This document shows positions 3,397-41,318 of a DNA stretch of 41,401 nt, in pieces. Position numbers and translations under genes: made by a program. The notes below the pieces were generated by a model. It was not told where the DNA came from. It did not search any database and worked only from the letters and a program-made list of their open reading frames with translations. Each line of letters opens with the position of its first letter. Position 1 is the first letter of the stretch. This DNA comes from an uncultured Bacteroidales bacterium. GTDB lineage: Bacteria > Bacteroidota > Bacteroidia > Bacteroidales > UBA4417. Location of the stretch: the NCBI GenBank assembly GCA_903887815.1, contig CAISRK010000490.1:1-41401 (forward strand), in the 5' to 3' direction.

Positions 3397-3873
3397 AGCA
3401 CAAAGATAGATCGTCACAACCAGATTAAAAAGATTATACGCAACAACAAAATGGCCGGGCAAGAAGAACTTTTAGAATCCTTGCGGAAAGAGGGGTTTGA
3501 ACTCACGCAAGCCACGCTTTCGCGTGATTTGAAAGAGATGCGGGTTAGTAAACTTGCTGATCCGGTAAAGGGAAGTGTATTTGTATTGCACGAACAGCTA
3601 AAGCAAAACAATCAACAGGCCACCATTCCCCTTATTCCTGTTAACAGTGTAATTTCGGTTGTTTTCTCCTACCATTTATGCGTTGTTCGAACGTTCCCTT
3701 CTTTTGCCTCTACCGTAGCTAATTATATCGACAGTTCACAACTTGCTGAAATAGCAGGAACCGTTGCCGGCGACGACACCATACTTGTAATACCGCGCGA
3801 AGGATACACTCAAAAAGAAATACTGAAAGCATTGGGATCGGTTATCCCTGAAATAGAAACCAGGCTGGATTAA
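3394..3873 (+). CDS. argR: arginine repressor ArgR
   Basis: QEELLESL..EGFELTQATLSRDLKEM wHTH and GTVAGDDT arginine-binding motif; start taken as ATG 3394 (MSTKIDRH). Confidence 0.95.
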   Translation: MSTKIDRHNQIKKIIRNNKMAGQEELLESLRKEGFELTQATLSRDLKEMRVSKLADPVKGSVFVLHEQLKQNNQQATIPLIPVNSVISVVFSYHLCVVRTFPSFASTVANYIDSSQLAEIAGTVAGDDTILVIPREGYTQKEILKALGSVIPEIETRLD

Positions 3874-5969: not shown

Positions 5970-6082
5970 AAGAATATCAATTAACGATTAACGATTTTAG
6001 ATTTTAGAAGAAGGCACATGTTCTGTCAGAAATTCACTTCAAAAATCGCCAATCGCCAATCCTTGTTCTTAAATCAAAAAAT
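5970..6082. repeat. ~110-bp imperfect inverted-repeat intergenic element with heptamer-periodic arms (copy A)
   Basis: AAGAATATCAATTAACGATTAACGATTTTAGATTTTAGAAG ... CTTCAAAAATCGCCAATCGCCAATCCTTGTTCTTAAATCAAAAAAT; both arms are shared with 11623-11738. Confidence 0.75.
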
Positions 6083-7101: not shown

Positions 7102-7178
7102 CCTGTTCATATTCTCTATATTAACTAACTTTTTGCAATCAACATCAACATACTTTACCGATTACCCAAAACTATAAA

Positions 7179-8318
7179 ATGAAACTCTTCGATGTTTACC
7201 CTCTTTTTGATATTGAACCTGTTAAGGCAATCGGCAGTCGCATCCTCGACAGCAATGGCACCCAATACATGGATTTCTACGGTGGCCATGCCGTCATTTC
7301 TATCGGGCATTCACATCCGGAATATATTAAAGCCATAACCAACCAGCTGAATAAAATTGCTTTTTACAGCAATTCGGTCATCATCAGCCTGCAGCAGGAA
7401 TTGGCAGATAAACTGGGGCAGTTGTCGGGATATCCCGATTATTCACTGTTTCTGTGTAATTCGGGTGCCGAAGCCAACGAAAACGCGTTAAAGCTTGCAT
7501 CGTTTACCAACAAACGCAGCAAGGTAATTGCGTTTAAACAGGCATTTCACGGCCGTACCTCAGGGGCAGTGGCCTGTACCGATAATCCTTCCATAATTGC
7601 GCCTTTCAACGCTAATCACAAAGTGGAATTTATCGAACGGTTTGATATAAATGCTGCCAGGCTCTCCATCGAAAAAGGAGATGTGTCGGCTGTTATCATC
7701 GAAGGGATCCAGGGTGTAGGCGGGATTTATGTTCCGGAACCGGATTTTCTCGTGGAATTAGAGGCTATATGTAAGCAAAACGGAACTTTCCTTATCCTGG
7801 ATGAGATTCAGAGCGGTTATGGACGCAGCGGTAAATTTTTCGCTCACCAGTATTCTTCCGTAAGGCCCGATATCATTACCGTCGCCAAAGGAATGGGAAA
7901 CGGTTTCCCGATCGGAGGCGTACTTATCAGCCCTGTTTTCGAATCGTGGTATGGGATGCTTGGCACTACTTTTGGCGGAAACCATCTTGCCTGTGCTGCT
8001 GCCAAAGCGGTACTGGATGTGATTGAAGAAGAAAACCTGGTCGAAAATGCAGCCATCGTTGGCAAATACCTGGCTGACCGCTCAAAAAACCTGAAAGGCC
8101 TGAAAGAAACCCGTGGAATCGGTTTGATGATCGGGCTGGAATTCGAATTTGACATTACCCAGCTCCGCAAGGATTTGCTCTTTCAGCACAAAATATTTAC
8201 CGGCTACAGCGGGAAAAACACACTTCGCCTGTTGCCTCCGCTGAGCATTAACAAAAATGATGTGGATACGCTGATTACTGCCCTCGAAGCAATCCTGAAC
8301 CAAACCAAAAGCGCATAA
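7179..8318 (+). CDS. argD: acetylornithine/succinylornithine aminotransferase (class III PLP)
   Basis: NSGAEANE, FHGRT, DEIQSGYGRSG, AKGMGNGFPIG, GTTFGGN; located in the arg cluster. Confidence 0.93.
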   Translation: MKLFDVYPLFDIEPVKAIGSRILDSNGTQYMDFYGGHAVISIGHSHPEYIKAITNQLNKIAFYSNSVIISLQQELADKLGQLSGYPDYSLFLCNSGAEANENALKLASFTNKRSKVIAFKQAFHGRTSGAVACTDNPSIIAPFNANHKVEFIERFDINAARLSIEKGDVSAVIIEGIQGVGGIYVPEPDFLVELEAICKQNGTFLILDEIQSGYGRSGKFFAHQYSSVRPDIITVAKGMGNGFPIGGVLISPVFESWYGMLGTTFGGNHLACAAAKAVLDVIEEENLVENAAIVGKYLADRSKNLKGLKETRGIGLMIGLEFEFDITQLRKDLLFQHKIFTGYSGKNTLRLLPPLSINKNDVDTLITALEAILNQTKSA

Positions 8319-12922: not shown

Positions 12923-14323
12923 TTAAAGCTCCGTTTCTTCACCAGCCTCAGGAATCCCGATATTATGGAATCCCCTTGATTCAAGTGTTGTTTTATACGC
13001 CAGCTGTGCATCATATTCACCATGCACCAGGAAAACCTTTTGAATCTGCGAGGTATCCTGGCATCCAACATAATCAGCCATTTCGTTGTAATCGCCATGC
13101 CCTGAAAATGCTTCGATCCGCTCGATTTTCGCTTTTACAGGATGACGCACTCCAAAAATGGAAACCTCGTCAGCTCCATCCAGGATGCGCGCGCCAAGTG
13201 TCCTTGGACCGCAATAGCCAACTGCCAGGATGGTATTGTTGGGATTTTCGATATTATTGGCCAGGTGATGCTTTATTCGCCCAGCTTCCATCATGCCTGA
13301 AGCGGAAATAATTACACAAGGCTTTTTATTTGCGTTCAATCGTTTCGAATCCTCCGGGCTTTTGATATAATAAAGGGAATTAAATCCGAACGGATCGGGG
13401 TCGGTGAGCATTACTTGGGCAACATCCGCATTCAGAATATCAGTGTGCAGGCGGAAAATGTCGGTAGCATTTACGGCTAATGGGCTGTCAACGTAAATAT
13501 TAACCCTGGGCAACAATCCCTGGTTAAAGAAATTATTAAGCGCATAAACTACTTCCTGGGTCCTGCCGATAGCAAATGATGGAATTATAACCTTACCACC
13601 ACGGTCGACACATGTTTCGCGGATTACCCTTAACAGTTCTGTTTCTGCCTCTTGCAGTGGCGGATGTAGCCTGTTGCCATAAGTTGATTCAGTGATCAGG
13701 TAATCGCACTGTGGAAAGGGCTCAGGCGATCTCAAAATCCGGCTCACAGGACGGCCGATATCACCGGTATAGGCGATCCGGGTGGTTTTTCCATTCTCTG
13801 TAATCTCGAGCGTAGCTGTTCCACTACCCAGCATATGGCCGGTATTTGTAAATTTGACTTTTATTTTATCGTCGATACGAAACTTTCGGTCGTAAGCAAC
13901 TCCAATAAACAGTTCCATACAGGCACGGGCATCCGTTTCTTTATAAATCGGCTCAACAGGGGTTAGCCCTTTTGCTACCCTGCGTTTATTGAACCATTTC
14001 ACGTCACCTTCCTGAATATGGCCGCTGTCGGCCAGCATTATGGCACACAGGTCGCGGGTAGCGCTGGTGCAGATTACCGAACCCCGAAAGCCCATTCTGT
14101 AGATATATGGGATAAGTCCCGAATGATCGATATGGGCATGTGTAAGAATTACATGATCAATTTCCGCCGGATTAAACATCAGGTTGCGGTTGAGAGCATC
14201 CGTATCGAGTCCTTTTCCCTGGAACATTCCGCAGTCGAGCAGTATTTTCTTGCCGCTTCCGGTGGTTAGGAGGTGCTTGCTTCCGGTAACTTCGCGGGCG
14301 GCGCCGATAAATTTTATTTTCAT
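12923..14323 (-). CDS. MBL-fold metallo-hydrolase with beta-CASP domain (putative RNase)
   Basis: GAAREVTGSKH, LDCGMFQG, THAHIDHSG, GHMLGS, ESTYG, FAIGRTQE, SGH..D, LVHGE. Confidence 0.93.
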   Translation of the reverse strand: MKIKFIGAAREVTGSKHLLTTGSGKKILLDCGMFQGKGLDTDALNRNLMFNPAEIDHVILTHAHIDHSGLIPYIYRMGFRGSVICTSATRDLCAIMLADSGHIQEGDVKWFNKRRVAKGLTPVEPIYKETDARACMELFIGVAYDRKFRIDDKIKVKFTNTGHMLGSGTATLEITENGKTTRIAYTGDIGRPVSRILRSPEPFPQCDYLITESTYGNRLHPPLQEAETELLRVIRETCVDRGGKVIIPSFAIGRTQEVVYALNNFFNQGLLPRVNIYVDSPLAVNATDIFRLHTDILNADVAQVMLTDPDPFGFNSLYYIKSPEDSKRLNANKKPCVIISASGMMEAGRIKHHLANNIENPNNTILAVGYCGPRTLGARILDGADEVSIFGVRHPVKAKIERIEAFSGHGDYNEMADYVGCQDTSQIQKVFLVHGEYDAQLAYKTTLESRGFHNIGIPEAGEETEL

Positions 14324-14540
14324 GATATAAGTGTCTTTTTAAACGAATCATCAAATTTACTTTATATAAATACACCAACCGTAAATAAATCCAGGTATCG
14401 CAACTGATCTTTTCAATCTGATAGCTGAAAAATTCGGAATCAGATTCGCTTAATAATTAAGTCAAAAACACAAATTTAACCGTTAAAATAATTTACATAT
14501 ACCATTCTTTATCAACTATTTATATGCATTAACAATATTT

Positions 14541-14630
14541 TACTCAATATATAGAGTACTTTTACTCAATATATAGGGTATTTTTACTTTATATTATGAG
14601 TATTTTTACTCAATATATTGCGTAATTTTG
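14541..14630 (+). promoter_or_regulatory. array of four phased 18-bp imperfect palindromes (22-bp period) ending in a TAATTTTG -7 promoter box
   Basis: TACTCAATATATAGAGTA 14541, TACTCAATATATAGGGTA 14563, TACTTTATATTATGAGTA 14585, TACTCAATATATTGCGTA 14607, with 4-nt T-rich spacers; TAATTTTG at 14623-14630. The regulatory role is inferred. Confidence 0.8.
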
Positions 14631-14658
14631 TGTGTGAAATTGAGTGAAATTCATTTTT

Positions 14659-15843
14659 ATGATTAAACGTACACATTTACAACTGGTTATAAGCAGGATT
14701 AAAGAAAAGAGAAGGTTTATGCAGGTGCTTGCCGGACCGCGGCAGGTTGGGAAAACCACATTGGTTTTGCAGTTACTCGAAGAACCGGGAATCCGGGGAT
14801 TGTATGTTGCCGCCGATGATATCTCGGGGATTGGACAGTCGTGGATAGAACTTCAATGGGAAACTGCGAGGCAGAAACTGAAAACGGCTGAATCAGACTC
14901 CTTTGTTCTGATCATTGATGAAATACAAAAAATCCCGAACTGGAGCGAAACCGTAAAACGCTTGTGGGATGCCGATAGCCGCGAAAACATTCCGTTGCAT
15001 GTAATTCTGCTGGGTTCTTCCAGGTTATTGCTTCAAACAGGAATGACCGAATCGCTTGCCGGCAGGTATGAAACCATGTATATCAGCCACTGGTCGCTTG
15101 CCGAAATGCGGGAAGCTTTTGGCTGGAGCGCTGATCAGTATGCCTGGTATGGAGGGTTTCCGGGAGCAGCTTCCCTGATTCCGGATGAGGGAAGATGGAA
15201 AAACTATATTAATAACTCGCTGGCTGAAACAAGCATTTCGAAAGATATCCTGATGATGTCGCGGGTTGATAAGCCGGCATTGATGAAGCGGCTTTTCGAT
15301 TTGGGTTGCTCCTATTCGGGCCAGATGCTCTCGTTCAACAAAATACTGGGTCAGTTGCTTGATGCAGGAAATACTACCACCTTGTCGCATTACCTCGGTT
15401 TGCTGGATTCAGCCGGAATGCTTGGCGGACTTGAAAAGTTTTCACGCGATAAAGCCCGGAAACGTTCGTCGAGTCCAAAGTTCCAGGTTCACAATACTGC
15501 CTTTACCAGTGCATTGCACCCGTACGATTTCCAGAGGATCATCACCGACAGGGAAAAATGGGGACGGGTTATCGAATCGTCAGTCGGGGCTCACCTGATA
15601 AACAATGCTTACTCACAGGGATATTCATTATTCTACTGGCGTGAAGGCAATTACGAAGTGGATTTCGTACTTGAACACAAAGGCCGGGTGGTAGCTCTCG
15701 AGGTAAAAAGCGGCCATAGCCTCCGCACCGCAGGAATGATGCAATTCAGGAAGTATTATCCCGACTCGAAAATAATGCTGGTCGGACGCGAAGGCATCCC
15801 CTGGGAAGAGTTTTTATTGTTAAATCCGATGAAGTTATTCTAG
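14659..15843 (+). CDS. AAA+ ATPase (AAA_14) with DUF4143 / wHTH and C-terminal PD-(D/E)xK-like domain
   Basis: Walker A GPRQVGKT, Walker B IIDEIQ, GSS, ESLAGR, GGFP; HTH-like SFNKILGQL..GNTTTLSHYLGLL; C-terminal YWR..EVDFV..ALEVKSG. Start ATG 14659 (alternative GTG 14644). Confidence 0.9.
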   Translation: MIKRTHLQLVISRIKEKRRFMQVLAGPRQVGKTTLVLQLLEEPGIRGLYVAADDISGIGQSWIELQWETARQKLKTAESDSFVLIIDEIQKIPNWSETVKRLWDADSRENIPLHVILLGSSRLLLQTGMTESLAGRYETMYISHWSLAEMREAFGWSADQYAWYGGFPGAASLIPDEGRWKNYINNSLAETSISKDILMMSRVDKPALMKRLFDLGCSYSGQMLSFNKILGQLLDAGNTTTLSHYLGLLDSAGMLGGLEKFSRDKARKRSSSPKFQVHNTAFTSALHPYDFQRIITDREKWGRVIESSVGAHLINNAYSQGYSLFYWREGNYEVDFVLEHKGRVVALEVKSGHSLRTAGMMQFRKYYPDSKIMLVGREGIPWEEFLLLNPMKLF

Positions 15844-31153: not shown

Positions 31154-31354
31154 GACAAGGCGAGCGGGAGACAAGGCGAGGGGCGACAGGGTGATGGGAA
31201 AATAGGGCGACAAGGAGAAGGGAGAAAATGATGGATGGCGGATGTAAGATCGCGAAACGCTGGAACCCTTTAATCTTTTGAACGCGCGCAGCGCATTGAA
31301 CCAGGAACATTGAACAACGAACATTGAACGCGCGAAGCGCATTGAACCAGGAAC
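31154..31354. repeat. composite repeat-rich cysD-cysN spacer
   Basis: 7-8-nt-periodic GACAAGGC/GAGGGGC tract directly after the stop, plus a 31-bp direct repeat TTGAACGCGCG(C/A)AGCGCATTGAACCAGGAAC at 31278-31308 and 31324-31354. Confidence 0.8.
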
Positions 31355-39015: not shown

Positions 39016-39190
39016 AAGTTACTTGTTACTGGTCGCTGGTTACTGGTTACTGGTATTAAGCCGGTATGATTGTTTGTTTCTGAGTTAAGATATCACATTT
39101 TGTTTTCGCAATGACCTTTGTTTTCTGATATTTTGACTTTTACTTTCCTCGTATCCCGTTTTCTGTATTTCGCCTCTTGTCCCTTGTCCC

Positions 39191-40291: not shown

Positions 40292-40414
40292 AATTTGCGA
40301 TTTCGGATTTACGATTTACGATTGGCTGGTCATTTATTTCTATTATACTATGGGTTATTTGAATCTGATCCGAGTGTTCTTGATTCGTACCTCGTAAATC
40401 GTAATTCGTAAATC
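40292..40414. repeat. inverted pair of heptamer arrays
   Basis: AATTTGC GATTTCG GATTTAC GATTTAC GATT (40292-40323) and TCGTACC TCGTAAA TCGTAAT TCGTAAA TC (40385-40414). Confidence 0.8.
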
Positions 40415-41144: not shown

Positions 41145-41318
41145 TCAGATAGGGTTTAGGAGTTTGGGATTGGGGATGTCGGATGTCGGATGTATTCTTT
41201 AATTAAAATTTTCAATAACCTGATTATTCCAGGCTTTTAATTTCTGCGGTTATTTTAATCTTATTCCTTAACTAGGTTCCCCTTTAAATTTGGGTCTTGA
41301 AATTTGGAACCTGGAATT

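Follow-up and report, generated by a model that had tools for sequence, protein, structure and literature searches.

The AAA_14–DUF4143 gene of the window, by which we mean the whole 41,401-nucleotide stretch of DNA analyzed here, is preceded by a tandem array of 22-bp units whose half-sites recur upstream of the close homologs of the gene. The comparisons described below suggest that the array is an expanded copy of a 22-bp-phased operator belonging to the family, and we consider it most likely (probability about 0.6) that the gene represses itself through the winged helix of its own product.

Array, gene, and setting in the window

Tandem Repeats Finder located a tandem array at 14538 to 14629 (period 22, 4.2 copies, score 119). 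Nowhere else in the 41.4-kb window is there an array with a period of more than 15, which agrees with the statement of an earlier note on this DNA that no other promoter in the window has a comparable array. The same note had described four 18-bp palindromes with an exact 22-bp period, and the repeat finder, a motif scan, and shuffles all bear out the number and the period: with three or fewer mismatches allowed, the 18-mer of the note matched the window only at 14541, 14563, 14585, and 14607, and the 7 matches counted on both strands (0.07 expected) were reached in none of 100 shuffles. The spacers between the first four units (CTTT, TTTT, and TTTT) and the letters TAATTTTG at the end of the fourth were likewise read correctly. 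The units are near-palindromes rather than palindromes, however; units 1, 2, and 4 have a perfect left arm, TTACTCA, and the right arms of units 1 to 4 are, in order, AGAGT, AGGGT, TGAGT, and TGCGT, of which all but the third are imperfect. The four units of the note were all found, but a fifth, which follows in register, had been missed (Table 1). Its right arm ends 11 nt before the ATG, which is the position of the promoter-proximal unit throughout the family.

The start codon of the gene is ATG 14659, as in all homologs, and not GTG 14644, the start given in the list of open reading frames. The 394-aa protein matched PF13173 (AAA_14; E = 1.1e-23) and PF13635 (DUF4143; E = 5.3e-25), and its match to PDLC04791 runs from end to end (residues 1–393 against model positions 1–393 of 395). 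Judged by these matches, the gene clearly belongs to the PADLOC candidate defense family PDC-S01. A search of NCBIfam gave no family for the 394-aa protein, and a sequence search of the Protein Data Bank (PDB) gave no chain matching it. In the alignments of homologs, the DE of Walker B is conserved alongside the Walker A sequence GPRQVGKT.

An AlphaFold2 model calculated from a 58-row alignment was confident (pLDDT 91, pTM 0.90). It predicts a winged helix-turn-helix (wHTH) with helices at residues 206–218, 226–232, and 239–251, followed by strands at 255–260 and 274–277, with a basic wing, RKRSSSPK, between the two strands. When the model was compared with PDB using Foldseek, the top matches included Orc1/Cdc6 proteins on origin DNA (2v1u_A, 2qby_A/B, and 7tji_I). 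Other neighbors were 2fna_A and 2qen, archaeal AAA+ proteins with no assigned function (TM 0.44–0.49), and the STAND NTPases CED-4, Apaf-1, and plant NLRs (probability 1.00, TM 0.38–0.44). The model thus points to a domain of DNA-binding type adjacent to an ORC/Cdc6-like AAA+ domain, and the product would be expected to bind DNA. A homodimer prediction (two copies, alignment A5) scored 0.00 and was counted neither for nor against. A fold of the lone winged-helix region (residues 199–290, 43-row alignment) was discarded; it was all-helical, with a pLDDT of 55.7.

Table 1. Features of the AAA_14–DUF4143 gene and of the array upstream of it
Feature	Position	Strand	Remarks
Operator unit 1	14539..14560	+	Left arm TTACTCA perfect; right arm AGAGT
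Operator unit 2	14561..14582	+	Near copy of unit 1; right arm AGGGT
Operator unit 3	14583..14604	+	Left arm degenerate (ACTTT); right arm TGAGT perfect
Operator unit 4	14605..14626	+	Left arm perfect; right arm TGCGT; corresponds to the distal unit of the family, which would fill the promoter spacer
Operator unit 5	14627..14648	+	In register; left arm degenerate, right arm TGAGT perfect
TAATTTTG, putative Bacteroidota −7 box	14623..14630	+	Unit 4/5 junction; last base at −29 from the ATG
AAA_14 + DUF4143 gene, 394 aa, P0001	14659..15843	+	PADLOC PDC-S01 model PDLC04791, E = 4.8e-177
Walker A GPRQVGKT, residues 26–33	14734..14757	+	G26, G31, and K32 invariant in 58 aligned sequences
Predicted winged helix-turn-helix, residues 206–277	15274..15489	+	AlphaFold2 model
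Putative recognition helix N238–D251 (NTTTLSHYLGLLD)	15370..15411	+	N238 and Y245 nearly invariant
PD-(D/E)XK nuclease motif D335 ... E348-V-K350	15661..15708	+	Residues invariant in alignments A1 and A2

The window is a segment of a Bacteroidota chromosome with housekeeping genes, including an arginine biosynthesis operon, GldD, and transporters, and it also encodes a type IX secretion sorting domain. The GC content of the AAA_14–DUF4143 gene resembles that of its flanks, and its flanking genes encode a divergent β-CASP hydrolase on one side and, on the other, a membrane protein that contains Gate domains. The divergently transcribed β-CASP metallo-hydrolase gene (12923–14323, minus strand) is a recurring neighbor in 4 of 81 loci (the window, L001, L003, and L013), and its product scored 408.6 bits on the NCBIfam model for type VII CRISPR Cas14, the cut-off of which (800) is well above this value. 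Short tandem runs of 7-nt units were also seen in intergenic DNA of the window at 1–25, 215–246, 5980–6061, 39018–39054, 40293–40323, 40392–40414, and 41174–41193; the heptamer of 215–246 recurs as its reverse complement at 41174–41193. Two other arrays, at 31154–31199 (period 15, 3 copies) and 31294–31329 (period 14, 2.6 copies), sit between genes for a PAPS-reductase-family protein and an EF-Tu-like GTPase, which resemble a sulfate adenylyltransferase pair.

Conservation of the element with the gene

One scan of species-representative genomes yielded 598 confirmed relatives, and the best 80 of the 598 (54–88% identity) were analyzed. All of these best 80 loci have the half-site TGAGTAA/TTACTCA in the 130 bp before the start codon (203 sites); among control segments of 130 nt taken from the same loci, 52 of 3916 have it, as do 20 of 784 that are AT-rich. 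Full palindromes with no more than one mismatch in the 10 arm positions numbered 101 within 250 bp upstream of the gene and 9 in 639,558 nt elsewhere, and at least one was present in 68 of the 80 loci. The earlier note had allowed that homologs might lack the array or that the motif might stand before many unrelated genes; instead, the half-site lies upstream of the gene in every one of the best 80 of 598 loci, and in flanks and plasmids the motif is at chance level.

Successive half-sites on the same strand were exactly 22 bp apart in 54 of 57 cases (two were at 44 and one was at 21), successive opposite-arm sites were 22 bp apart in 17 of 17, and the arm-to-arm spacing was 13 in 50 of 60. 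In 55 of 75 loci, the last base of the final half-site was at −11 or −12 relative to the start codon. We used the proximal right arm as an anchor, which was found in 78 of the 80 loci (none in L003 and L027); the position 22 bp upstream of this anchor, which had not been selected for, was a perfect TGAGT in 57 of the 78.

The usual form of the element has two units, with an overall range from 2 to 6 or more, and the four-unit array of the earlier note is therefore not the form that prevails across the family. The window, L001, and L002 group in a single clade whose members have from three to five or more units; L061, L066, L071, and L075 also exceed two. The window has an expanded version of the operator, with five individually weaker units versus two strong ones. 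Concerted evolution of the units within a locus was addressed by a weak test, in which unit identity was 0.565 within loci versus 0.544 between loci and the within-locus value was equaled or exceeded in 206 of 5000 permutations. The two-unit form looks old and stable, and not repeatedly regenerated.

Among 1013 flanking ORFs, the commonest family was present in only 5 of 81 loci; the site is co-inherited with the gene and with nothing else. The motif is common only to the subfamily at least 42% identical to the window protein and is absent from five more distant paralogs (23–29% identity), and the claim of conservation is therefore limited to this one subfamily. Five loci have a distant DUF4143 paralog, at 23–29% identity, no more than 4 kb from the focal gene (L070, 2497–3672, minus strand; L011, 6906–8105; L067, 1724–2884; L037, 540–1703; and L041, 2169–3377, minus strand). 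Several distant paralogs in flanks and on plasmids have palindromes or repeats of their own near the start, differing from the present motif, which were seen without controls or ortholog sets.

Some loci contain remnants or additional copies. In L028 and L046 (Pedobacter), a second complete two-unit operator is present at about 3800–3835, approximately 190 bp upstream of the gene; it keeps a leader and an ATG, followed by a stop within a few codons, and looks like the ghost promoter of an earlier copy or of a replaced cassette. L057 contains, at 7117–8169, another member of this subfamily that is broken into two ORF pieces (46–63% identity), approximately 2 kb downstream of the intact gene. 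The gene is also broken in L013 (4001 onward), where the ORF stops after 116 aa, and in L089 (about 540–610), on a B. finegoldii plasmid, where there is a frameshift near codon 20; the operator upstream is intact in both.

The hosts of the gene are Bacteroidota, Chlorobiota, and metagenome-assembled genomes (MAGs) of other phyla. The design is also kept in plasmid copies from Collinsella (Actinomycetota), Thermus (Deinococcota), Coxiella (Pseudomonadota), and Bacteroides. The Collinsella copy (43% identity) has two units in perfect phase before a Shine–Dalgarno site, the Thermus oshimai copy (48% identity) has an AT-rich palindrome within GC-rich DNA, the Bacteroides finegoldii copy (48% identity) has three direct half-sites at 22 bp, and in the Coxiella copy (52–53% identity) a palindrome precedes the ATG by the usual distance. 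When a two-unit operator was used as a query against 7.3 Gb of plasmid sequence, only one match was significant (E = 2e-3), and its position is upstream of a homolog. The other 69 plasmid records had E values of 1 or more, and in all 29 of them that were listed the match is in or next to silC/silF. These silC/silF matches (H52–H80, enterobacterial plasmids) are about 35 nt long, have chance-level scores, and represent one locus copied many times. The gene tree and the host taxonomy are discordant: L067, from a Thiohalospira (Pseudomonadota) MAG, is nearly identical to L050 of Bacteroidota, and the copies from Lentisphaerae and Verrucomicrobia MAGs (L041 and L076) nest among those of Bacteroidales. 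Either horizontal transfer or binning errors would account for this discordance.

The Bacteroidota promoter consensus consists of TTTG at −33 and TAnnTTTG at −7, and by this consensus we take TAATTTTG in the window to be a putative −7 box of a predicted promoter. The earlier note had stated that the last of its four copies runs into such a box; the letters are present, and the label depends on the consensus. The pattern TTTG-N17–23-TAnnTTT[G/A], taken from the same consensus, was found in 36 of 81 upstream regions versus 3 of 804 control segments. The spacer was 19 nt in 28 of 38 matches to this pattern, and the −7-type box ended at −28 or −29 in 30 of the 38, a position that TAATTTTG shares. 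No TTTG was found in the window at the expected −33 spacing from TAATTTTG, and a scan for sigma-70-type promoters and terminators gave 5 sites versus 4.5 expected. In this arrangement, the distal unit would fill the predicted promoter spacer, the −7 box would form the unit junction, and the proximal unit would cover the expected start of transcription. Such a geometry is typical of repression, and it is from position that we infer repression in preference to activation.

Candidate binder and competing explanations

In the reading that we favor, the operator unit would be a 22-bp sequence, TTTACTCA-N6-TGAGTAAA, repeated head to tail, and its binder would be the product of the gene itself, acting through the wHTH with a recognition helix that begins at N238–T239. 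Two subunits would occupy each palindrome, with neighboring units approximately two helical turns apart, and occupancy would shut off the promoter of the gene, resulting in negative autoregulation of an ATPase–nuclease. That the nuclease is toxic is an assumption. As a counterpoint, the invariant helix could be conserved for structural reasons, because the winged helix of STAND proteins is a nucleotide-switch element and is not known as a DNA binder.

Natural variants of the half-site bear on the identity of the binder. Where the half-site is altered, the change affects both arms, or every unit, of a locus together: TGAAC is found in the Coxiella copy (L081) and in a second B. finegoldii copy (L089), CTAGT in Thermus (L083), TGCGT in a contig from a phage collection (L090), and TTAGT in L049. 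Residues 235–241 have the canonical sequence DAGNTTT in 75 loci, none of which has an altered half-site, whereas in each of the 6 loci whose half-sites have changed the helix region has changed too (NATT, NVTT, ERGNTVT, NTAT, and DSGN among the variants), with variation at residues 239–240 of the putative recognition helix. Fisher's test on the resulting 2 × 2 table (6/5/0/75) gives a raw p of about 1e-6, uncorrected for kinship. On a tree of 86 proteins, from which the broken L013 and four distant paralogs were left out, the changes in half-site and helix are separate events, and in one well-supported clade three half-sites are paired with three helix starts in three members. The helix variants NTVT, NTIT, and DVGN retain TGAGT, and L089, one of the two examples of TGAAC, is a frameshifted, unannotated copy. 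Counted as independent pairs with correction for kinship, 3–4 changed the same way, 0 the opposite way, and 3–4 were unchanged. The covariation is thus suggestive only: it runs in the direction that the binding proposed in the earlier note would entail, but it is not significant after the correction (sign test, p = 0.125).

The relationship of the fold to oligomerizing ATPases allows another reading, in which the phased sites are a loading or nucleation platform where an ORC/STAND-like AAA+ protein oligomerizes with ATP and any effect on transcription is secondary. The array might then serve as an anchor, a sensor, or a self-marker for the nuclease, a role compatible with autoregulation. The fold is nearest to Orc1/Cdc6 on origin repeats and to oligomerizing STAND NTPases, the strict 22-bp phase with 2 to 6 or more copies suits cooperative arrays, and conservation extends to Walker A/B and the nuclease triad. 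We nevertheless regard this reading as doubtful, as the element keeps a constant distance to the start codon and interlocks with the predicted −33/−7 boxes, which is needed by an operator but not by a mere platform; in addition, two units are usual, and the chromosomal housekeeping context has no replicon features. Also no more than tentative is the proposal that the winged helix and the 22-bp-phased operator make up a portable, coevolving recognition pair whose role would extend beyond repression. The promoter of the gene would then be the nucleation site of the ATPase, and titration, for example by invader DNA or through ATP-driven oligomerization elsewhere, would release expression and arm the nuclease.

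Since AT-rich palindromes are commonly targeted by host regulators, and the motif is linked to the product of the gene purely through comparative data, we also considered another trans-acting factor, a host global regulator or nucleoid protein, whose regulon would include the gene. This is improbable: the motif has accompanied the gene into five phyla or more, and to plasmids as well, there is no conserved partner gene, and beyond the upstream region of the gene about 0.5 Mb of flanks and 7.3 Gb of plasmid sequence contain the motif no more often than expected by chance. The locus-specific, concerted changes of half-sites would also be hard to explain by a host factor.

A palindrome close to a start codon could act in RNA, as a 5′-UTR hairpin controlling translation or stability, and 89% of the cells of the proximal unit, which lies near the start codon, are able to pair. 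However, pairing is kept by sequence conservation and not by compensation, and we therefore hold an RNA hairpin to be very unlikely. The covariation score was reached by 137 of 500 shuffles, both sides change in 3 of 560 cells, and the left arm has at least two mismatches with an unchanged right arm in 21 of 78 loci. The putative −7 box between the units would leave the left arm largely untranscribed, and the right half-site of the distal unit, which lies 22 bp upstream and is probably untranscribed as well, is nonetheless perfect in the 57 of 78 loci mentioned above. A search of Rfam gave no match to the element.

It is just as hard to believe that no protein binds the array and that its conserved sequence is simply a strong promoter carried along by the gene, the extra copies of the window being slippage products. 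The putative −7 box is indeed embedded in the unit junction, and the near-identity of units 1 and 2 in the window is what a recent duplication would leave. However, ACTCA/TGAGT is retained under other promoter types (Collinsella with its Shine–Dalgarno site and GC-rich Thermus) and, to our knowledge, is not part of the Bacteroidota promoter consensus, and the dyad symmetry and symmetric arm changes indicate symmetric recognition by a protein. An iteron or replication origin of the ORC–ORB type does not fit the housekeeping context, the flank-like GC content, and the sites locked to the start codon.

Autorepression by the product of the gene remains the reading that we prefer. The earlier note had interpreted the array as a cis-element of this gene, bound by its own product and forming with it a self-contained unit. 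The presence of the motif at each of the 80 loci, and also on plasmids from four other genera, the 22-bp phase, the fixed distance from the start, the lack of a conserved neighbor, and the concerted changes strongly support a self-contained cis-element, of which the gene's own product would be the probable binder.

Relation to known systems

In passages of one report, PDC-S01 is described as an ATPase fused to PD-(D/E)XK that is very abundant and is a candidate without experimental validation (PMC12988326), and DUF4143 appears in a list of PD-(D/E)XK families in another (PMC3424549). The window gene resembles PDC-S01 (AAA_14 + DUF4143, COG1373) in both Pfam domains and in the end-to-end PDLC04791 match; the motif, by contrast, is confined to the subfamily with at least 42% identity, and paralogs at 23–29% identity are without it. 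In the literature, supplements aside, we found no description of an operator or a DNA specificity for the PDC-S01/DUF4143 family.

Orc1/Cdc6 proteins, which are the best structural neighbors, combine an AAA+ domain with a winged helix and read repeated dyads, and their origin recognition boxes often adjoin the gene of the initiator itself. The window protein differs from them in that it is bacterial, has an extra PD-(D/E)XK domain, and has no match in PDB at the sequence level, and its putative sites differ in that they are interlocked with a predicted promoter, lie at a fixed distance from the ATG, and have no origin features. Another parallel is provided by the controller (C) proteins of restriction-modification systems and their C-boxes, which are tandem palindromic operators at the promoter of a mobile nuclease unit. 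C-boxes are portable with the nuclease unit, and autoregulation sets the expression of the nuclease. The likeness would be one of function, with palindromic operators sited at the promoter of a nuclease unit, and it would extend to other mobile nuclease units under autoregulation. In the C systems, however, the regulator is a small HTH protein of the Xre type that is separate from the nuclease, whereas here the putative regulator, the ATPase, and the nuclease are one polypeptide, and the element has a 22-bp period with 2 to 6 or more units. The core of NTPase, helical, and winged-helix domains is shared with STAND NTPases (CED-4/Apaf-1/NLR and MalT); the winged helix in most of them is not known to be a DNA reader. 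The window protein differs from STAND NTPases in having no sensor repeat domain and in having a co-occurring DNA motif.

PDC-S01/AAA_14–DUF4143 is reported, in passages of the same source, to be among the most abundant candidate defense families in prokaryotes (PMC12988326). An operator tied to one subfamily across phyla would provide the first concrete candidate DNA ligand for the winged helix of this family, and residues 239–240 are candidate specificity residues, for which natural variant pairs exist. The putative operator is also a simple handle for promoter-reporter and electrophoretic mobility shift assays. A putative regulator and effector fused in a one-gene unit would explain how such genes can move alone between hosts of differing promoter type. 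If the more tentative reading as a recognition pair and nucleation site were true, the gene would be sensor, regulator, and effector in one, with a DNA specificity that could be read from its own upstream sequence.
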